Below, one piece after another: positions 7,741-17,215 of a stretch of DNA of 32,000 bases (positions are counted from its first letter, which is position 1; each line of letters starts with the position of its first letter). The DNA is from Burkholderiaceae bacterium. Its GTDB lineage: Bacteria; Pseudomonadota; Gammaproteobacteria; Burkholderiales; Burkholderiaceae_C. The notes under the pieces are model-generated. The model worked only from the letters and a program-made list of their open reading frames with translations, was not told where the DNA came from and ran no database searches. The stretch lies in the NCBI GenBank assembly GCA_965234775.1, contig OZ248562.1; one strand, 5' to 3'. The position numbers and the translations under genes were made by a program.

Positions 7741-7769
7741 GCCAGCTTGCCGTGGCAGTTTTTGAATTT
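7741..7769. repeat. Left direct repeat (att site) of the secA-inserted island; fossil copy of the secA 3' end
   Basis: GCCAGCTTGCCGTGGCAGTTTTTGAATTT is identical to 14463-14491. On the minus strand it encodes KFKNCHGKL plus the first two bases of the final Ala codon, followed by the third Ala base and TGA (7737-7739), then 4 nt and the argJ ATG. Confidence 0.9.
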
Positions 7770-8131: not shown

Positions 8132-8776
8132 ATGCAAAACGATTTCGACGCATTCATTTCACACTTAAATCTTAGCGAAGTCAAGCTTAAAATGCTTAAG
8201 AGACTGTGGAATAGTGGAAATATTTTCCCAAAAGATTGGGTTAGAAGTAGTGAATTGTTAACCTTAACAAATCAGAAATATTTTGACCGACGACTACGAG
8301 AACTGAGAGACAGAGGTGGATTAGATTTGGAAACAAAGCAGATTAATGGCGAACATTGCTGGAGACTAAATTCCAATAATATTTCAAAAATCATCAATAG
8401 AACTTACTTAACAGCAAAACAAAAGATAGAAATGTTTGAACAAGCAAAACACACTTGTTCCATCTGCGGAAAATTTAGTTTAGCTGGAGTACGTGGACTC
8501 CAAGCAGATCATAGAGTTCCACTAACTCGAGGTGGAAGTGAAGAGCTTAGAAATTGGCAACCTATATGCAATGAATGCAATGTTGTCAAACGCAGACAAT
8601 GCCAAGACTGCACCTTAAATTGCGAAACTTGCAGTTGGGCTTATCCCGAAAAATCAAGCAAAAAATTGTTGATAAACATACCAAAAAATTTATCTCAAAA
8701 TCCCAAAATTAACCAACTAAATGACGAACAACTAGAAGCATTTTTTGTCCAATTACTTCGTAAAGATTTAGACTAA
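8132..8776 (+). CDS. HNH (His-Me finger) endonuclease, putative Type II restriction enzyme partner of the adjacent m5C methyltransferase
   Basis: C-terminal CSICG...ADHRVPLTRGG...NWQPICNECN...CQDC..CETC gives an HNH motif with CxxC zinc ligands. The N-terminal ~100 aa resemble a DNA-binding or winged-helix module (inference). Convergent with the MTase gene and overlapping it by 9 nt. Confidence 0.7.
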   Translation: MQNDFDAFISHLNLSEVKLKMLKRLWNSGNIFPKDWVRSSELLTLTNQKYFDRRLRELRDRGGLDLETKQINGEHCWRLNSNNISKIINRTYLTAKQKIEMFEQAKHTCSICGKFSLAGVRGLQADHRVPLTRGGSEELRNWQPICNECNVVKRRQCQDCTLNCETCSWAYPEKSSKKLLINIPKNLSQNPKINQLNDEQLEAFFVQLLRKDLD

Positions 8777-9751
8777 GCAAAACAGATTGTCTTCAATAGT
8801 TCTCTTTTGTTTTTTCTTCTTAAGTGCATTGATGATTGCTAAGCCAACAGCCCTTGCTACTGGGGGTGGAAAAGCATTACCAATTTGACGATAAGCAGAA
8901 GTCTTCTTTCCACAAAAATGCCACTCATCAGGGAATCCTTGAATACGTGCAGCCATACGCAATGTTAATCTTGGAGTGAAATCTAAAGGCGCGTCACTTC
9001 CAGGACCTACATCAACAATTCCCTTACCATCAACCTTGAGGTCTAACCATTGTCTCTTAGCCCTCGTTGGTCCTAAATCAGCACCGCCATGCTTCTTACT
9101 TCCACCAACAAGTGTTGGCGCAATCTTGTTTGAATAATTTAGCCACTTATCTGCACCTTGCCAACCATTTTCAGCAATCAAATCAAAAAGTGCATCCCCT
9201 ACTGTTACAACTTTATCTTCACCCTTAGGCCAAGTAAAATATTCAGCATATTCATCCTTAATCGCTACCAATATAAATCTTGGTCGCAATTGAGGAACAC
9301 CATAACTAGATGCATTCAATACACGCCAATCCGATTTGTAGCCCAGCTTAGAAAGTGTTTGTAAAATCCAAGCCCTATAGTTTTCAAACTTCGGAGTGGA
9401 TAAACCACGTACATTCTCTAGTAAAACAGCTTTGGGATTACATTGCTCTATAAGTCTTAGTGCGTCTGGAAATAAATCTCTATCATCTAAATTCCCTAAT
9501 TGCTTACCAGCCAAGGAGAAAGGTGGGCAAGGAACACCACCAGCAAAGAGATCAACACCATTAAATTTTTCAGCACTGAAAGATTTCACATCCTGTTCAA
9601 CTACATTCCACTTCGGGCGATTGTGTCTAAGTGTTTGACATGCATGTGCATCTATCTCTACTGTCGCTAAATGATTAAAGCCAGCCATCTCCAATCCTAA
9701 AGCTTGTCCACCAGCGCCTGCACATATCTCTATAGATGTAAATTTAGACAT
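8768..9751 (-). CDS. DNA (cytosine-5)-methyltransferase
   Basis: Motif I EICAGAGGQALG, motif IV GGVPCPPFS, motif VI LLENVRGL, motif VIII QLRPRFILVA, motif X GNAFPPPVA. Start taken at MSKFTSIE (9751). Confidence 0.9.
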   Translation of the reverse strand: MSKFTSIEICAGAGGQALGLEMAGFNHLATVEIDAHACQTLRHNRPKWNVVEQDVKSFSAEKFNGVDLFAGGVPCPPFSLAGKQLGNLDDRDLFPDALRLIEQCNPKAVLLENVRGLSTPKFENYRAWILQTLSKLGYKSDWRVLNASSYGVPQLRPRFILVAIKDEYAEYFTWPKGEDKVVTVGDALFDLIAENGWQGADKWLNYSNKIAPTLVGGSKKHGGADLGPTRAKRQWLDLKVDGKGIVDVGPGSDAPLDFTPRLTLRMAARIQGFPDEWHFCGKKTSAYRQIGNAFPPPVARAVGLAIINALKKKKQKRTIEDNLFCLV

Positions 9752-9762
9752 AAAAATGTTGA

Positions 9763-9814
9763 TTGAAAGAGGCTTGCACAGCTTATTATAATGGATACAA
9801 TACAAGATTGTATC
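9763..9814 (+). promoter_or_regulatory. Sigma70-like promoter (TTGAAA-18 nt-TATAAT) followed by an 8-bp perfect inverted repeat GATACAAT-N5-ATTGTATC
   Basis: -35 at 9763-9768, -10 at 9787-9792, inverted repeat at 9794-9801/9807-9814. It sits in the 92-nt divergent gap between the MTase gene and the H-NS-like gene. A TATAAT also reads on the opposite strand at the same place. Confidence 0.5.
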
Positions 9815-9843
9815 TCTCTAAACATTGGATAAAGGAACGAAAA

Positions 9844-10074
9844 ATGAGTAAAGTAGCTGAAATCAAAGCACGAATTGCTGCTGATCAAGAAGCACTAAAA
9901 GATGCTATTAAAGGTGAGAAGACAGAAGCACTAAAGCGAATTCGTCAAGAAATTAAAGACTTTGGTTTTAAGACAAGTGACTTCAAAGGTGTTCTTGCTA
10001 CACGCGCCAAGCGTAGTCCCAACGGTACACGTGCAGCTAAAAATGTTGCAGCTAAGAAAACCTCAAAAGGCTAA
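9844..10074 (+). CDS. Truncated H-NS-like protein (N-terminal oligomerisation-type coiled coil with a basic tail; no canonical C-terminal DNA-binding domain)
   Basis: MSKVAEIKARIAADQEALKDAIKGEKTEALKRIRQEIKDFGFKTSDF resembles the H-NS/BpH3 family N-terminus and the ..YG.t..D. linker pattern. It ends after a Lys/Arg-rich tail with no TWxGRG-type motif. AAGGA RBS lies before the ATG at 9844. Confidence 0.55.
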   Translation: MSKVAEIKARIAADQEALKDAIKGEKTEALKRIRQEIKDFGFKTSDFKGVLATRAKRSPNGTRAAKNVAAKKTSKG

Positions 10075-10077
10075 TAT

Positions 10078-10377
10078 ATGATTGTCGTAAAACACAACTC
10101 AAGTCGTAAGAGTTTAAACTTTAACGACAACTATTTTGAAGTTACGGGTGTGCCTATGACTATCAATAACACCAATGTGATAAGCGATGCGCTCAATGAC
10201 AAATTATCAATATATGGCGATGAAGCTTTTTCACCAAAAGCTGACGGAAGTTCCTACAATATTTCTGTAAGAGGATTGGCATCACAAACAATTTTTACTG
10301 ATGTTAGTGCTCTACAAGCGTATATTTTAGACAAGCTTAATTCTTGCCTATCAAAGTTAGAAGAACGGAATAATTAG
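10078..10377 (+). CDS. Hypothetical protein (99 aa), apparently co-transcribed with the H-NS-like gene
   Basis: ORF starts 3 nt after the upstream stop. No recognisable motif. AT-rich codon usage consistent with the island. The start codon is uncertain. Confidence 0.4.
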   Translation: MIVVKHNSSRKSLNFNDNYFEVTGVPMTINNTNVISDALNDKLSIYGDEAFSPKADGSSYNISVRGLASQTIFTDVSALQAYILDKLNSCLSKLEERNN

Positions 10378-10949
10378 ACCAACTCAATCGCTTTGCGTTT
10401 CATCGCGTCATTGACGTCTATGTAGCACTGGGTGGTTGACAGATTAGCATGCCTTGCGATGCTTTGTAGCACCCTAACGCTGACACCTTTATCAGCCAAG
10501 TTGGTAATTCCTGTGCGTCTTGGACTGTGACTTGAACCACCTGAAATGGCACAATTGCGGAATAAGTGGTGAAAGTGTTGGCATAAGGTATTGCTGCTCC
10601 AGCCTTCCGCTGGACGCTTTTGTGAGTAGAAAAGCTTGTCTGTGATTTCCTTGTATGGCACAGCCTTAACGTAAGTCTGTAGTTCTCGGCGTAGCTTATC
10701 ACTCACAAACACAGTACTGCCCTTGCCTCCCTTTGTCTGTTCTGCAGTCAAGTAAATCTCAGTTTTAACCTTGCCCTCTGCATCAAGTACATCTGCGTAG
10801 CGTAGTGCCGCACATTCTTTGACACGTAACATTGCGTACAGCATTGTCAAAAACATTGCTCTATTACGCTCAGCGTGGGGACGTGTAGCCACATAGTCCA
10901 GCACTCTACGTATTTCTTGTGCTGTGAGTACTTTTGCTTGTTTGGACAT
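10374..10949 (-). CDS. Small tyrosine recombinase (catalytic domain only, ~191 aa)
   Basis: Catalytic residues are readable: R in LRVKE, K in TKGGKGSTVFV, HSPRR (H-x-x-R), RHANLSTT (H) and QCY (Y). AGGAGA RBS lies 6 nt before the ATG at 10949. No N-terminal core-binding or arm-binding region. Confidence 0.85.
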   Translation of the reverse strand: MSKQAKVLTAQEIRRVLDYVATRPHAERNRAMFLTMLYAMLRVKECAALRYADVLDAEGKVKTEIYLTAEQTKGGKGSTVFVSDKLRRELQTYVKAVPYKEITDKLFYSQKRPAEGWSSNTLCQHFHHLFRNCAISGGSSHSPRRTGITNLADKGVSVRVLQSIARHANLSTTQCYIDVNDAMKRKAIELV

Positions 10950-11087
10950 TAGTGCTCTCCTAAATGTAAGTTTACTAATGCGAACAGTGTATTTTCTTTG
11001 TTTCTTAATTCCTACCTCTTTTTTACTTTGTTGATTCAAGTTATTTTCCTTAATGATTACGCCAGGTTAGCGTGTGTATAACAATAA

Positions 11088-11117
11088 ACCAAAGCTTTTA
11101 GCAATTAGCTTTGGTTT
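11088..11117. terminator. Perfect 10-bp stem hairpin AACCAAAGCT-N10-AGCTTTGGTT with T-rich flanks on both strands
   Basis: Read directly. It lies ~140 nt upstream of the small recombinase start, followed by TTTGTATTT on + and TTTATTGTT on -. Confidence 0.4.
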
Positions 11118-11160
11118 TGTATTTATTGGAAATACTGTGTGATTGCGACTTAATTAAGCA

Positions 11161-11296
11161 AGCTTGCGTATAAGCCCTGTACGCTGTTGCAAGCTGCGCC
11201 AGCTATCCAAGCCTAGCTCAGCTTGTTTTGTGCGTTTGTAGCTTGTTTAATTCAGCTTGCTTGTGTGCTTTGCTTTGTCGATTAGCTTGCGTAAGC
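11161..11296 (+). repeat. Iteron-like cluster of five same-strand AGCTTG motifs; the outer two extend to AGCTTGCGTA(TA)AGC
   Basis: AGCTTG at 11161, 11220, 11240, 11254 and 11284. The plus strand here is strongly G+T-rich. Inverted AGCTTGC/GCAAGCT at 11161-11167/11189-11195. Confidence 0.45.
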
Positions 11297-11481
11297 ACTA
11301 CCCTATTGCTCCTATGTAGACAACTCTGTTGTTTGATGTTGCGCTGTAATGTTTGGACGCAGTTAGCCATTTGTATGTGTGTTACTTGAGAACACATTGA
11401 TAGCGAAACTTTGTTTCGCTTGCGTCTTCGCTTACGCTCAACGCATTTTTCTTCTCTTAATTTTATTTGTGTTTTGACTTT

Positions 11482-11551
11482 TAATGCTCATTACTAGGAA
11501 GCACAAGCCACGCCCTGTTAAAGGGCGTAGCTTTAGCTAATGCTCATTACT
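11482..11551 (+). repeat. 14-bp direct repeat TAATGCTCATTACT (x2) flanking a 7-bp-stem hairpin ACGCCCT-GTTAA-AGGGCGT
   Basis: Copies at 11482-11495 and 11538-11551. Hairpin at 11510-11528. Confidence 0.5.
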
Positions 11552-11986
11552 GAGGGTTAACAACTGATATACACACAACTTGATTGATTACAAGAAAGGT
11601 AGGTTTTGCTATCACCTTTTATGTGCTTGCCTTACGCAACACACTCACAGCCTATATCAGTAGCTTTGTGGTGTGTTTATGGGTTGGATTGTGGCAGTCC
11701 CATTCACTTTCAGCCTATACATTTTCGTACTTGCTTACGTTCATACATCTCTGTATTACCAACCTGTACAACTTCGCAAACGTTTCTACGCAATGGCGTG
11801 ACGTTTAAGGCATCCAACGGTTAAATTGGGTAGTGCGATGAGGCTAACTATGAGAGAGTTAAATTGCTTACCGTCACACATCAGAACGGATTTCGCGGCA
11901 CTATTACAGTCGGCGTGCTAACCTTTATATCTCATTTATACCTTTATTTATGCGAAACCAAAGAATAGATTAAATTTTTCTTCTGG

Positions 11987-12015
11987 TTGACCTTAAAAAA
12001 GTCTGAAGTTACATT
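11987..12015 (+). promoter_or_regulatory. Candidate sigma70 promoter for the 12046-13026 gene pair (TTGACC-17 nt-TACATT)
   Basis: Hexamers at 11987-11992 and 12010-12015, ~30 nt upstream of the AAAGGAG RBS and the ATG at 12046. Confidence 0.4.
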
Positions 12016-12045
12016 AATAATTCACTTAACAAAAGGAGTTCTGCT

Positions 12046-12483
12046 ATGTCAGCAATTGCTAAATTGAAGCTTGTTTCTAGCAAGCGTGAACGTTTTCTTA
12101 GTCCAACTGTATCTCGTCGTCATAAACTAGCAGACAAGTTGGATGAGCAGCTTGCTCTTTGTCAAGCACAAAAAAATGGTGATGTTTACGCACCCAAGCG
12201 TATTAAGACCATAACCAAGCCAGATGGTGAGCGTGTACGTGTAGAAGCTGTCAAGCGTGTTAAAGAGTGGTTTTGGACCAATAGCAATGGAAAGATTAAC
12301 TTGGCTGTGCGTTATGGCAGCAAGACTTTGGAGCTTGGCAAAGGTAAAAACGCCATTGAACTCAGTACTGGTGATGAACTTATCAGCACCTTAGTGCTGC
12401 TTAAAGATGCTGTAATTGCTGGTGAATTGGATGAAGCTATCAACAACGCAAGTGATAAGTTACGTGCTGGCTTTGCTAAATGA
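12046..12483 (+). CDS. Hypothetical protein (145 aa), conserved-looking island protein of unknown function
   Basis: Strong RBS AAAGGAG. Basic N-terminus and KRVKEWFW...GKINLAVRYGSKTLELGKGKNAIEL core. No catalytic motif recognised. Confidence 0.7.
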   Translation: MSAIAKLKLVSSKRERFLSPTVSRRHKLADKLDEQLALCQAQKNGDVYAPKRIKTITKPDGERVRVEAVKRVKEWFWTNSNGKINLAVRYGSKTLELGKGKNAIELSTGDELISTLVLLKDAVIAGELDEAINNASDKLRAGFAK

Positions 12484-12514: not shown

Positions 12515-12555
12515 ATTCTCCTATTCATGGCTAAATATAAGAATAGGAGATGACT

Positions 12556-13026
12556 ATGCGACTTTATGAAATTGCTGACGCTAAAGCACAACTAGAATTG
12601 CTACGAATAATTATTGACAACACTTGGTCAGCAATAGCACAACAAGCAGAACAGCAGAAACGTTCGGACGCGGAACGTAAGGCACTGGCTAAGCTTAAGC
12701 CACGTACTAAGAAATCACGTAAGGGTACAAGCATTCGTATACCTACACCTCCACCACTACCACCAAAGCAGCCTCAAGTCCAGTTAGCTAAACAACCACC
12801 CTCTTCACTTAACAACCTCAACCCTAACGCCTTAAACGCTGTAAAACCCCCACCTACCAATCCTCAAATTAAACCGTCGGCTACAATTACAGCAATCAAA
12901 CCTACGCCTGCGTTTATTCCTCAACCCAAGCCTATAGTCACTACATCCATCAAACCATCTAACGGTTTAAAATTGAGCACTTTAGAAAAAGAAGAAGATT
13001 GGTACGCTAAGTATAGAAATAATTAA
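12556..13026 (+). CDS. Hypothetical protein with N-terminal helical segment and long Pro/Gln/Lys-rich low-complexity region
   Basis: AGGAGA RBS lies 5 nt before the ATG at 12556; the track start at 12550 overlaps the RBS. PTPPPLPPKQPQVQ...KPPPTNPQIKP repeats. Confidence 0.55.
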   Translation: MRLYEIADAKAQLELLRIIIDNTWSAIAQQAEQQKRSDAERKALAKLKPRTKKSRKGTSIRIPTPPPLPPKQPQVQLAKQPPSSLNNLNPNALNAVKPPPTNPQIKPSATITAIKPTPAFIPQPKPIVTTSIKPSNGLKLSTLEKEEDWYAKYRNN

Positions 13027-13099: not shown

Positions 13100-14365
13100 T
13101 TACCCACCTAGCTTAGTAGCAAGTGCTAAAGGTGTTGCTTGTTTACCATAGTATTTCTCAATTATTTGCACACTCGTACCCATATTTCTTGCTATATCAA
13201 ATATTGGTATCCCACGTTTTATCATCATTACAGCGTAAAAATGTCGCAAGCTGTACAGCGTATATTTCTCTTTGTCACGGCTTTCTGTCAAGCTTATTGA
13301 CTTAAGCAAAGCATTGAATTGGTCGATGAGTGTGACTATTTTGTTGCCATCGTACATACAGAAAAACCAACCGTCTGTATCTTTTAATTTTCTTTTTGGA
13401 CTTCGGACTTTTCTAACTTCCGCCTCTTGTGTTCTTACAAGATTCCGCCGTCTTACTCGTTCTACATATCTAACAACATTAGTTCGTGGAATAACAACTC
13501 TTCGTCCAGTCTTCCCACGCACTGAAAACATATAGTTTTTTCTTCCTAGCTCATCCTTAAATTCAACAATATCGTTGTCTTTTAAGTTGTTGGCTTCACC
13601 AACTCGTATGCCACTGTTAGACAATACCAGAACGTAATCTCTTAGCAGTTCCTTTGTGTACTTCCACTCCTTATTCTTTGTATCTTTTATGCCCTTACGC
13701 ATTCCTTTTATGATTTCCCAATACTCAGCTACTGTAAATGTTGGACGAACAATAGCTCTTTCTGCATTAAATCTGTATGTTGGCAGCTGTGTCTGTCCTC
13801 TGTATCCACGCTCATAAGCAAACTTTATCAGCGTCTTTCCTAGTGTCATCTCCCACTCTAATGTCTTATCAGCTGGGTTTATTTTGTGGTTTCGTGGACG
13901 CTTATCCTCTGCCATTCGGTGGTAATAATCTTTACGCCAGGGGATGTAATCTTGTAGAACAGCGTTGTCCATATTACTTACACTTTTTGTACCGCAGTAC
14001 TCTCTCCAAAACTTTGCTACTCGCTTAATTTGACGAAGCATATGAATACTTGTCTGCTGCCTTGAGCTTGAGTTCGTCTTAACGTCTAGACTTTTTTGGT
14101 ATTGACTTTGCCTAAGTGCGATGTATTCATCTATTACATCGCCAAAAGATTTTTGCTGTAGTGGCAGTCCTTCTCGCTGTTTATATTCCATCTCGTGGAG
14201 ATATTTCAAGGCTAATTTACGTGCCTCTTCTACCTTACGTGTCTTTAAGGTTTTGTAAATGTACTTCCTATCGCCTTTGTAAAAGCGTGCCTGATATATG
14301 CCGTTGCGACAGAAGATAAGGACTTTGCCGTCCTCTAATTCTTCCTTAAATTCTGTGCTTAACAT
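13100..14365 (-). CDS. int: Tyrosine integrase of the island
   Basis: C-terminal catalytic domain: SGIRVGE (R), GKTGRRVVIP (K), YSLRHFY (H-x-x-R), and the EKYYG tyrosine. Long N-terminal arm/core-binding region. Located directly inside the right att repeat. Confidence 0.9.
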   Translation of the reverse strand: MLSTEFKEELEDGKVLIFCRNGIYQARFYKGDRKYIYKTLKTRKVEEARKLALKYLHEMEYKQREGLPLQQKSFGDVIDEYIALRQSQYQKSLDVKTNSSSRQQTSIHMLRQIKRVAKFWREYCGTKSVSNMDNAVLQDYIPWRKDYYHRMAEDKRPRNHKINPADKTLEWEMTLGKTLIKFAYERGYRGQTQLPTYRFNAERAIVRPTFTVAEYWEIIKGMRKGIKDTKNKEWKYTKELLRDYVLVLSNSGIRVGEANNLKDNDIVEFKDELGRKNYMFSVRGKTGRRVVIPRTNVVRYVERVRRRNLVRTQEAEVRKVRSPKRKLKDTDGWFFCMYDGNKIVTLIDQFNALLKSISLTESRDKEKYTLYSLRHFYAVMMIKRGIPIFDIARNMGTSVQIIEKYYGKQATPLALATKLGG

Positions 14366-14458: not shown

Positions 14459-17215
14459 CTAGGCCAGCTTGCCGTGGCAGTTTTTGAATTTTTTGCCGCT
14501 GCCGCAGGGGCAGGGTTCGTTGCGACCCACTTTGACCAGCCCCTGCGGGGCCAACTCAAATTCGCTGCTGGGACCGGCATAGGTATAGGCCTCGCCGGTT
14601 TCGCTGGGCGCGGTATAGGTGACGTTGCTGATCTTCTCGGCCTGCGCTTCCAAGGCTTGGGCAGCCTCGTCAATTTGCTGCTGCGATTGGATTTGCATGT
14701 TCATCAAGATGCGGGTCACTTCGGCCTTGACCTGGTCCAGCAACTGACCAAACAACTCAAATGCCTCGCGCTTGTACTCTTGCTTGGGTTGCTTTTGTGC
14801 ATAACCACGCAAGTGAATGCCTTGGCGCAAGTAGTCTAGGGAAGACAAATGTTCGCGCCAATGGTTATCGATGCTTTGCAACAACACCGCCCGCGTGAAG
14901 GGCGTGAGCTGACCAACCCCCAGATCAGCCACCTTGGTGGCAAAAGCGGCGTGGGCAGCGCTGACCACTTTTTCGACCACATCTTCATCAGACACCGATG
15001 TGGCGCCCTCGATCCAAGCTTGCAAACCCAGATTGATTTGCCACTCCATGGCGAGCGCGCGCTCCAAAGCGGGAATGTCCCACTGCTCTTCAACCGACTC
15101 CACCGGGACAAATTGGCGCACCAAGTCGGTGAAGCAGCCTTCGCGCAAGCTGGTGATTTGCGCGCTGAGGTCTTGGGCATCCAAGATGTCATTGCGCTGC
15201 TGATAGATCACCTTGCGCTGGTCATTGGAGACATCGTCGTACTCGAGCAACTGCTTGCGCACATCAAAATTGCGAGCCTCCACCTTGCGTTGAGCGCTTT
15301 CGATGCTGCGGGTGACGATACCGGCCTCAATCGCCTCGCCCTCTGGCATTTTCAGGCGGTCCATGATGGACTTGACCCGATCGCCCGCAAAAATGCGCAT
15401 CAGCGGATCGTCCAGGCTCAGGTAAAAACGCGATGAACCAGGGTCCCCCTGGCGGCCCGAACGGCCCCGCAACTGGTTGTCGATGCGGCGCGACTCATGG
15501 CGCTCAGTGGCGATGATGCGCAAACCGCCTTGCGCCACAACTTTGTCGTGATCCAACTGCCACTGGGCACGCAGGGCCTGCTCTTGCTGTGCGTGCTGAT
15601 CGGCGGGGATGGCCGCATCGGCTTGCATCGCAGAAATCATTTTTTCAAGGTTGCCGCCCAACACAATATCGGTGCCGCGGCCTGCCATGTTGGTGGCAAT
15701 GGTGATCATCTGGCTGCGCCCAGCTTGGGCCACGATGTCGGCTTCGCGCTCGTGTTGTTTGGCGTTGAGCACCTGGTGCGGCAGCTTGGCTTGGGTTAAC
15801 AAGGCGGAGATGATTTCCGAGTTTTCAATCGAGCTCGTGCCCACCAAAACCGGTTGGCCGCGCTCGTGGCAATCGCGGATGTCATCGATGGCGGCGGTGT
15901 ATTTTTCTTGGGTGGTTTTGTACACCCGATCGAGTTGGTCTTCGCGCCGGCTGATGCGGTTGGGCGGGATGACCACGGTTTCCAAACCGTAAATCTCTTG
16001 AAATTCGTAGGCCTCGGTATCGGCCGTCCCGGTCATGCCAGAGAGTTTGCCGTACAGGCGGAAATAGTTTTGAAAGGTGATGGACGCCAGGGTTTGGTTT
16101 TCGGCCTGGATGTTCACACCCTCTTTGGCTTCAACCGCTTGGTGCAAGCCATCGCTCCAACGCCGCCCCGACATCAAGCGCCCGGTGAACTCGTCGACGA
16201 TGACGATCTCGCCGTTTTGGTTCACATAGTGCTGATCGCGGTGGTAGAGGTGGTGCGCACGCAAAGCAGCGGTCAAGTGGTGCATCAGGCTGATGTTGGC
16301 GGGGTCGTACAACGACGCGCCTTCGGGCAGCATGCCCATCTCCACCAACAAGCGCTCAGAATTTTCATGGCCTTGTTCGGTGAGGAACACCTGGTGTGAT
16401 TTTTCATCCACCGTGAAGTCGCCCGCCTTGGTGACGCCTTCGCCAGTGCGCAAATCTTCTTCACCCTCTTGGCGCTGCAACTTGGGCACCAACTGGTTCA
16501 TGGCCACATAGCGCTCGGTGTGGTCCTCGGCTTGGCCGCTGATGATCAGCGGCGTGCGCGCCTCATCGATCAGGATGGAGTCCACCTCATCGACGATGGC
16601 GTAATGCAACTTGCGCTGCACGCGATCGGCAGGCTCGTAGACCATGTTGTCGCGCAAGTAATCAAAACCAAACTCGTTGTTGGTGCCGTAGGTGATGTCG
16701 CTGGCATAAGCCGCTTGCTTTTCTTCGCGCGACATTTGCGGCAGATTAACGCCCACACTCAAGCCCAAAAAGTTATACAAGCGCCCCATCCACTGCGCAT
16801 CGCGCTGGGCCAGGTAGTCGTTGACCGTCACCACATGCACCCCGCGACCGGTCAAGGCATTCAGGTAAACAGCCAGGGTGGCGGTGAGGGTTTTGCCCTC
16901 ACCGGTGCGCATTTCAGCCACTTTGCCATGGTGCAGTGCCATGCCACCGCTGAGCTGCACATCAAAGTGACGCATCTTCATGATGCGCTTGGAGCCTTCT
17001 CGCACAACAGCAAAAGCTTCAGGCAACAAATCGTCCAATGGGGTGCCGCCAGCCACTTGCTGTTTGAAGGCCTCCGTTTTGGCTTTGAGGGCTTCATCAG
17101 TCAGTTGCTCTAGGCTTGGCTCCAAGGCATTGATGCGTGCCACGGTCTTGCTGTACTGTTTGAGCAAGCGCTCATTGCGACTGCCGAATATCTGGGTCAA
17201 AAATTTAAAGGCCAT
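14459..17215 (-). CDS. secA: Preprotein translocase ATPase SecA
   Basis: Starts [25 protein letters not shown]-like motor motifs ([38 protein letters not shown]) and the C-terminal zinc motif [14 protein letters not shown]. The longer track ORF (to 17317) is an upstream extension. Confidence 0.95.
14463..14491. repeat. Right direct repeat (att site), forming the functional 3' end of secA
   Basis: Identical to 7741-7769. Here it is followed on the minus strand by island-derived C+TAG, so the island supplies the stop codon now in use. Confidence 0.9.

Follow-up and report, generated by a model that had tools for sequence, protein, structure and literature searches.

Why should a small genomic island that already carries a full-length integrase encode a second tyrosine recombinase, and one that consists of a catalytic domain only? 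The question is posed by a 32,000-nucleotide (nt) stretch of contig OZ248562.1 from a Burkholderiaceae bacterium (GenBank assembly GCA_965234775.1), here called the window, in which a 6.7 kb island holds such a gene at positions 10374-10949. We call this gene sRec. It had been singled out in a previous reading of the window from its letters and open reading frames (ORFs), referred to below as the sequence-only reading. We report that sRec is a genuine, intact second tyrosine recombinase under purifying selection, and that it is best explained as an active compact recombinase with the single-domain build of FimB/FimE and an Xer-like core. Its role is a more tentative matter; with a probability of roughly 0.4, we favor the reading that sRec is a resolvase-type recombinase acting on the DNA of the element that carries it.

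sRec encodes a complete catalytic domain

The sRec ORF lies on the minus strand, with its ATG at 10949, and gives a product of 191 amino acids (aa).

10374-10949, minus strand: sRec, compact tyrosine recombinase, catalytic domain only, 191 aa (ORF, Pfam, profile and fold comparisons)
10956-10961, minus strand: ribosome-binding site AGGAGA, 6 nt 5' of the sRec ATG (sequence; kept in relatives)

The Pfam profile PF00589 (Phage_integrase) covers residues 6-181 with positions 1-170 of its 172 (E 3.6e-24), and the score of 85.9 bits against a curated cut-off of 27.1 corresponds to a full catalytic domain. Because the match begins at residue 6 with the first position of the profile, the protein starts at the catalytic domain. 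Six residues, R42, K73, H141, R144, H167 and Y176, make up the catalytic set; all of them are invariant or at least 90% conserved among 50 diverse family members (32-59% identity). When relatives are aligned, a three-base periodicity of conservation is clear within the gene, and we therefore conclude that purifying selection acts on a protein. The ORF of ~191 aa, the complete R-K-H-R-H-Y set, the start at the catalytic domain and the AGGAGA site had all been proposed in the sequence-only reading, which left the minus strand implicit, and all of them are borne out.

A longer ORF of 221 aa begins at a TTG (11039), remains open in almost every relative and would add a basic N-terminal arm. We rejected it as coding because the extra 90 nt, although evenly conserved, show no codon periodicity. 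These 90 nt are probably conserved non-coding DNA that serves as leader and promoter rather than as an N-terminal arm.

The family is naturally short

A word-indexed search returned 1,282 relatives of sRec, the best 120 of which (79-96% identity) are every one 186-230 aa long. When cluster representatives at 50% identity were searched exhaustively, 4,468 matched at E<=1e-3. The top 150 of these reach down to 34% identity. Their full-length members measure ~187-200 aa, with alignments that begin at residue 2-4; apart from three longer proteins, the others are mostly shorter fragments. By this comparison sRec is naturally short and not a truncation. The sequence-only reading had considered that homologues might carry an N-terminal domain that this copy has lost; they normally have no such domain and are also ~190 aa long, so we rejected a 5'-truncated pseudogene.

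Plasmid records with a relative of 30-37% identity number 469, and in several the gene lies beside ParA/ParB partition genes; distant relatives are found on large plasmids and phage-plasmid-like replicons, including a Legionella plasmid that carries its own MOBF relaxase. Lytic phiCbK-like phages also encode members of the family, and a search of viral contigs for sRec relatives found none. We note that the distant relatives on Acinetobacter, Piscirickettsia and Legionella plasmids (L113, L114, L115) adjoin partition or toxin-antitoxin genes, and that several distant plasmid relatives have AT-rich palindromes within ~120 nt upstream of the gene, such as a 16-6-16 repeat in pABTJ2.

Placement among tyrosine recombinases

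Among solved structures, those nearest to sRec in sequence are the catalytic domains of XerA, XerD, XerH and IntI4. XerA (4a8e) is matched at E 5.5e-13 with the single sRec sequence and at 5.9e-33 with the family profile, and the alignment is confined to XerA residues 103-273. The AlphaFold model of sRec has low confidence, with a predicted local distance difference test (pLDDT) score of 61; its top Foldseek matches are the same Xer list, and for that reason we take the fold search only to corroborate the placement by sequence. None of the NCBIfam equivalog models for Xer proteins reaches its cut-off (XerA, 80.7 vs 220 bits; XerD, 57 vs 330; XerC, 56 vs 335). In a profile comparison with hhalign, the family aligns to Escherichia coli FimB with 98.8% probability (E 8.4e-17, residues 8-185 against 8-182 of 200), and the NCBIfam invertase models score 28 vs a cut-off of 221 bits (PRK09870) and 18.6 vs 222 bits (PRK09871). 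The integron integrase model TIGR02249 matches residues 5-97 only, with 37 vs 265 bits. For comparison with the relaxase MobK, the sequence of its source plasmid, pIGRK, was retrieved through a published mutagenesis primer. MobK and sRec align with a BLASTP E value of 0.31, the family-profile comparison gives 48.6% probability, and on PF00589 sRec scores 86 bits vs 38 bits for MobK, whose match spans residues 17-184. The placement by hidden Markov model and structure search, which the sequence-only reading had proposed, thus yields an Xer-like catalytic core and a FimB-like single-domain build, with the integron integrase model partial and below its cut-off.

FimB/FimE switch recombinases function without a core-binding domain. 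The claim that a protein lacking this domain needs a partner or an accessory nucleic acid is not supported, as FimB has the same architecture and the purified 242-aa MobK binds and nicks its site specifically in vitro (PMC8152469).

Conserved DNA directly upstream of sRec

We compared 26 genome loci, from Limnohabitans, Polynucleobacter and other freshwater Burkholderiales, and 80 metagenome loci. The interval upstream of sRec, 10950-12045, contains no ORF of 80 aa or more. It had been described as 1.1 kb of repeat-rich non-coding DNA; the second half of that description stands, but the repeats are modest (short palindromes and a single exact direct repeat of 14 nt, no tandem arrays), and the stretch is a composite that includes promoter, structured RNA and conserved DNA. 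The part next to sRec is laid out as follows.

10950-11085, minus strand: sRec leader and probable promoter; the block from -70 to -38 is 77-94% conserved (conservation among relatives)
11086-11117, no strand assigned: perfect inverted repeat, arms of 11 nt around a 10-nt spacer (AAACCAAAGCT-N10-AGCTTTGGTTT), then a T-rich run (repeat search)
11118-11249, no strand assigned: "U", conserved upstream DNA between about -300 and -170 relative to the ATG (conservation, palindromes)

Blocks of conservation extend over ~300 nt 5' of sRec in almost all loci, even where sRec itself is only 52-60% identical. The leader is open in frame with sRec yet lacks codon periodicity. Within U lie a CAAGCT-N6-GCTTG-type dyad, which in relatives is a perfect CAAGCT-N6-AGCTTG, and a GCGTRYA-N5-TRTACGC palindrome. 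No consensus RNA structure and no covariation were found in the conserved ~300 nt; palindromes that are conserved in sequence without RNA covariation point to protein-binding DNA, and U is a candidate recombination site or origin of transfer. For the same lack of consensus structure and covariation we rejected the idea that the conserved 180 nt upstream of the hairpin encode a small RNA like the sgm-sRNA of SGI1.

The inverted repeat at 11086-11117 is probably a terminator or structural hairpin. Its arm sequences change type within closely related sRec lineages and are decoupled from the sRec phylogeny, which is why we regard it as a terminator-like hairpin rather than a pair of half-sites. 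Recombinase half-sites with "hybrid" arms as crossover products were tried as an explanation and rejected, since no exchange of flanks accompanies the arms and their type does not follow the sRec phylogeny. A dif-like 11-6-11 site was not found upstream of sRec; the dyads present there, a 6-6-6 (perfect in relatives, imperfect in the window) and the 11-10-11 hairpin, do not track the sRec phylogeny.

A constant core in elements that form circles or tandem arrays

In the related loci a DUF6641 gene always lies upstream of sRec on the opposite strand, 1.0-4.1 kb away, and a homologue of a 103-aa protein lies downstream in most close relatives (sRec at least 79% identical). The integrases, in turn, sit on one or the other side of the module and are 24-27% identical to that of the window, except for the integrase of a single locus at the same secA site, and sRec remains 80-97% identical in elements whose integrases are swapped. 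Cargo varies between loci and is often a restriction-modification system. Since integrase and cargo vary while DUF6641, the intervening slot and sRec persist, these three form the constant core, together with the 103-aa gene in close relatives. The comparison presents sRec as a standard backbone gene of a family of small (~7 kb) integrative elements in freshwater Betaproteobacteria.

Two of these loci hold tandem elements (two in L002 and two in L024), each with its own DUF6641, sRec and cargo. One contig of 7,246 bp (L047) has a 123-nt terminal overlap inside the integrase gene and closes to a circle of 7,123 bp, and a contig from a second sample (L049) is exactly 7,123 bp long. The 7,123-bp assembly indicates a free circular form or identical tandem copies. 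We also observed that the cargo of the tandem arrays includes NaeI/Vsr and MmeI-type restriction-modification systems, and that one locus (L003) holds a different element at the same secA site, with an integrase 90% identical.

The genes that accompany sRec in the window are these.

9763-10074, plus strand: 103-aa protein, convergent with sRec (homologue downstream of sRec in most close relatives)
12046-12483, plus strand: DUF6641 protein, 145 aa (Pfam; divergent from sRec in every related locus with enough flank)
12550-13026, plus strand: 158-aa protein (conserved in close relatives)

The constant neighbor, DUF6641, was considered as the partner protein suggested in the sequence-only reading. 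Its structure model is a helix-sheet-helix (pLDDT 71.6) with no PDB match at E<1, and a split core-binding domain, as in MpsB, is not supported because the model has no core-binding-like fold. Searches found no DUF6641 homologues in plasmids or phages and no literature on the domain.

A slot that holds a Rep-like gene or a structured RNA

Between the conserved DNA next to sRec and the DUF6641 gene lies a slot, equivalent to 11249-11934 of the window. In ~60 loci (for example L003, L004, L002 and L047) it is occupied by an ORF of 174-212 aa with HUH-like (HLHLHFAIG) and YITKE motifs, which probably encodes a rolling-circle Rep or nickase. The types of this ORF are very divergent, being 25-35% identical to one another, and the Pfam match is weak (REP_ORF2-G2P). 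In the window and ~11 other loci the slot instead holds an element of ~445 nt with no ORF, here called X; a search with tblastn detected no remnant of a Rep gene in this non-coding middle, and we rejected its origin by decay of such a gene. A variable spacer of ~190 nt separates the slot from the conserved ~300 nt. Set between two conserved flanks, the slot behaves as an exchangeable cassette would. In three loci it is filled by an unrelated 101-aa ORF.

11481-11929, minus strand: structured element X, ~445 nt, with its own upstream CATAAATA box (RNAalifold, covariation)
11759-11926, minus strand: 5' domain of X, assigned as a full-length relative of Polynucleobacter-1 RNA, Rfam RF01718 (covariance model, shared core)
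11935-12045, no strand assigned: conserved divergent promoter region (~110 nt) between the DUF6641 gene and the X/orfA slot (conservation)

The divergent promoter region contains TTGACC-17-TACATT on the plus strand at 11987-12015.

From seven copies of X, RNAalifold predicts 104 pairs, with 94.6% of cells pairing and 29 pairs supported by compensatory changes. Column shuffles give 11.3 +/- 2.3 compensatory pairs (0 of 500 reach 29), slid controls give 3-10, and X folds better on the minus than on the plus strand. The 5' domain has an invariant 18-nt core with at least 120 exact matches in viral contigs, at positions where Rfam assigns Polynucleobacter-1 RNA (RF01718). A covariance model built from the island copies alone matches these viral loci and Burkholderiales loci over the full length, with E values from 1e-6 to 1e-26. 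On the strength of the shared core and of these full-length matches at RF01718 loci, the 5' 166 nt of X are assigned to the Polynucleobacter-1 type. An Rfam search of the window gave no direct match, and Rfam's own RF01718 model does not score the window copy.

Is this RNA an obligatory guide or cofactor of sRec? We rejected that role. The island model found no Polynucleobacter-1-type RNA in any of the six orfA-type elements to which it was applied, and the viral contigs that bear it have no sRec, DUF6641 or Rep-like gene. Two loci have X, together with its CATAAATA box, directed away from sRec. Because it is absent from orfA-type elements, present without sRec and variable in orientation, X is best regarded as autonomous and not as an obligatory partner of sRec. 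The accessory nucleic acid envisaged in the sequence-only reading is accordingly disfavored, a Rep-like gene standing in place of the structured RNA in most relatives. That reading had also proposed to compare the upstream regions of homologues. The outcome is divided: the ~300 nt are shared by almost all loci, but the slot with the RNA mostly contains the Rep-like gene.

Several smaller observations concern X and its viral counterparts. The last hairpin of X stands between the two copies (11482-11495 and 11538-11551) of the exact 14-nt direct repeat TAATGCTCATTACT, probably the source of the earlier "repeat-rich" remark. The CCTNAGTAA core of this repeat is conserved in all copies, including the inverted ones in L024 and L025. 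At viral loci (L129, L158, L124 and others), genes for alanine/lysine-rich proteins beginning MRLxEI... are often found 450-530 nt downstream of Polynucleobacter-1 RNA; the 158-aa island protein begins MTMRLYEI..., a possible resemblance.

The island and its cargo

The sequence-only reading had placed sRec in a 6.7 kb island with a full-length integrase at its edge, which agrees with the base composition, a direct repeat and the integrase itself. The guanine plus cytosine fraction is 0.34-0.45 in the island vs ~0.6 in the flanks, and a perfect 29-bp direct repeat, GCCAGCTTGCCGTGGCAGTTTTTGAATTT, occurs at 7741-7769 and 14463-14491, a spacing of 6,722 bp.

7741-7769, no strand assigned: left copy of the 29-bp direct repeat, island boundary (repeat search)
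8132-8776, plus strand: HNH endonuclease, cargo (ORF, Pfam)
8768-9805, minus strand: C5 cytosine methyltransferase, cargo (ORF, Pfam)
13100-14365, minus strand: full-length integrase, 421 aa, adjoins the attachment site (ORF, Pfam)
14463-14491, no strand assigned: right copy of the 29-bp direct repeat, the last secA codons (repeat search, gene calls)

As the right copy consists of the last codons of secA, the 3' end of this gene was where the island inserted and was regenerated in the process; judged from these codons, the insertion restored the secA reading frame. The HNH endonuclease and the C5 cytosine methyltransferase probably constitute a small restriction-modification pair. The HNH gene overlaps the end of the methyltransferase gene on the opposite strand, and its product has a weak match to an IscB model that is restricted to the HNH motif.

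What sRec may do

The elements enter the 3' end of secA through a separate and interchangeable full-length integrase; sRec is not the integration enzyme. We infer its substrate site and the resolution reaction as follows. sRec would bind the conserved ~300 bp directly upstream of its own gene and perform site-specific strand exchange there, on the DNA of the element. The excised circular form may in most members replicate from the adjacent HUH Rep-like gene, and the exchange would serve to resolve its multimers or tandem copies. The intact catalytic residues, the Xer/FimB-like core, the Rep-like gene in most elements and the circular assembly support a recombinase. Several observations weigh against this proposal. 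To our knowledge, rolling-circle replicons do not usually have their own resolvase, and we know of no common use of a resolvase as a core gene of small integrative elements. In the loci compared, no recombination site was identified, the clearest inverted repeat (11086-11117) being terminator-like with a 10-nt spacer, and recombination products, deletions or hybrid junctions were likewise not observed. The tandem arrays persist, where efficient resolution between direct repeats would tend to remove them. Finally, the layout, in which a replication gene is followed by non-coding DNA and a short recombinase-like gene, also fits the MobK module (PMC8152469).

That last point leads to the foremost competitor of a resolvase, which we hold to be possible but on balance doubtful: sRec could be a conjugative relaxase of the MOB_M type, like MobK, MpsA and TcpM, with an origin of transfer to nick within the conserved DNA 5' of its gene, in which case the island would be an integrative mobilizable element that uses a conjugative helper. 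MobK is an orphan catalytic domain whose nucleophile, Y179, compares with Y176 of sRec and whose origin of transfer lies upstream of its gene, and it nicks DNA in vitro (PMC8152469). SGI1 follows the same logic: in its MpsA module an essential small RNA is encoded in the interval from the origin of transfer to mpsA (PMC6414798, PMC9299015). MOB_M relaxases are reported in a 2026 preprint to be common in chromosomes, to lie near an integrase in 96% of cases and to be mis-annotated often as integrases (10.64898/2026.01.13.699239). sRec likewise sits in a small integrase-bearing island and adjoins ~300 bp of conserved, palindrome-bearing DNA, and without such an activity the island copy in the window has no visible transfer function. 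Known MOB_M members have no significant mutual similarity, so dissimilarity in sequence carries little weight. Even so, sRec has no specific similarity to MobK, the profile probability being about half of that for FimB, and it scores on PF00589 as a typical recombinase. Its nearest relatives are found in lytic phages and on plasmids already equipped with a MOBF or MOBP relaxase, and most of the elements carry an HUH protein predicted to be able to nick DNA itself. By analogy, relatives beside ParA/ParB, on a MOBF plasmid and in lytic phages would fit a recombinase, whereas a relaxase makes little sense there. Unlikely, in our estimate, is the reading that sRec, the ~300-bp upstream DNA and DUF6641 constitute a previously undescribed mobility or maintenance module. 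Its FimB/Xer-like compact recombinase would have been turned into a relaxase or strand-transferase by a recruitment separate from those of MobK, MpsA and TcpM, with the neighboring slot filled interchangeably by an HUH Rep-like protein or a Polynucleobacter-1-type RNA. If true, it would offer the first functional context for that RNA, in the replication or transfer of mobile DNA.

Two further roles seem improbable. sRec might be an auxiliary subunit or directionality factor of the island integrase at the attachment sites, in an XerC/XerD-like heteromer, as the presence of two tyrosine recombinases in one element and the lack of DNA-binding domains in sRec would allow. The swapped integrases and their changing position relative to the module, set against the conservation of sRec, speak against co-evolution of the two, and nothing that resembles the upstream conserved region is present at the island ends. 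Hardly more credit is due to the invertase option of the sequence-only reading, and we rate it, if anything, slightly lower: here sRec would act like FimB/FimE and flip a promoter segment to switch its neighbors, for example the restriction-modification cargo. The FimB build, the strong profile similarity, a weak full-length NCBIfam match to tyrosine-type DNA invertase models and the variable defense cargo downstream of sRec are consistent with it. However, the 340 nt upstream of sRec are collinear and in a single orientation in all 86 aligned loci (73 of them distinct), no inverted-repeat pair brackets a promoter segment beside the gene, and the invertase scores fall far under the curated cut-offs. 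X is inverted in two loci, but within a different gene arrangement and not between fixed repeats. A resolvase-type recombinase remains the reading that we prefer.

The distinction has consequences beyond this locus. Whether sRec is a recombinase or a relaxase decides whether small defense-carrying islands count as mobilizable, and would extend or delimit the newly recognized MOB_M class. Short tyrosine recombinases without DNA-binding domains are abundant, and annotation pipelines label them uniformly as "site-specific integrase"; the sRec family alone amounts to thousands of cluster representatives and spans hundreds of plasmid records as well as phiCbK-like phages, with almost no member having an assigned role. 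The most interesting by-product is the genomic context for Polynucleobacter-1 RNA, whose occurrence in the slot of a Rep-like gene is a lead on a motif without a known function since 2010.

Comparison with known systems

The Polynucleobacter-1 motif was described in 2010, with its function unknown (Weinberg et al. 2010, PMC2864571). The RNA is widespread in phage contigs; in the island it fills the Rep-like gene slot of an integrative element, and the island copies carry ~280 nt of extra 3' structure beyond the shared 5' domain.

Among the recombinases, Xer proteins (XerA, XerD, XerH, XerS) and Cre/loxP-type resolution are nearest to sRec in the catalytic domain, by sequence and fold. All Xer proteins have an N-terminal core-binding domain, whereas sRec has none and its family is ~190 aa throughout. 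In several of these systems the recombinase gene adjoins its own site, and relatives of sRec adjoin plasmid partition genes. FimB and FimE of the E. coli type-1 fimbrial switch are, like sRec, catalytic-domain-only proteins (~200 aa) with the full catalytic set; they neighbor a fimbrial operon and an invertible segment, whereas sRec resides in a mobile island, with no segment between flanking repeats and no orientation polymorphism. Integron integrases (IntI) serve attI and cassette arrays, and the variable slot upstream of sRec is bounded by conserved DNA and not by attC-like sites.

MobK of pIGRK, a 242-aa orphan catalytic-domain protein, is a proven conjugative relaxase, and its origin of transfer lies within a 456-bp intergenic region just upstream of the mobK promoter and downstream of the replication gene (PMC8152469). 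It shares with sRec the orphan catalytic domain, a nucleophile near residue 176-179 and a layout in which the gene follows a replication gene and several hundred base pairs of conserved non-coding DNA. The pIGRK replication gene is RepL-like, however, and not of the HUH kind found near relatives of sRec, MobK has a 60-aa C-terminal tail, and neither BLASTP nor the profile comparison reveals a specific sequence relationship between the two proteins. MpsA of SGI1, like sRec, sits in an integrative island beside a true integrase; unlike sRec, it has an N-terminal extension and a helper, MpsB. The kind of protein to which sRec belongs is thus already known, from FimB/FimE, from MobK and from hundreds of ~190-aa "site-specific integrase" annotations, and sRec is an uncharacterized new member of it, carried by an apparently undescribed family of small secA-targeting islands.

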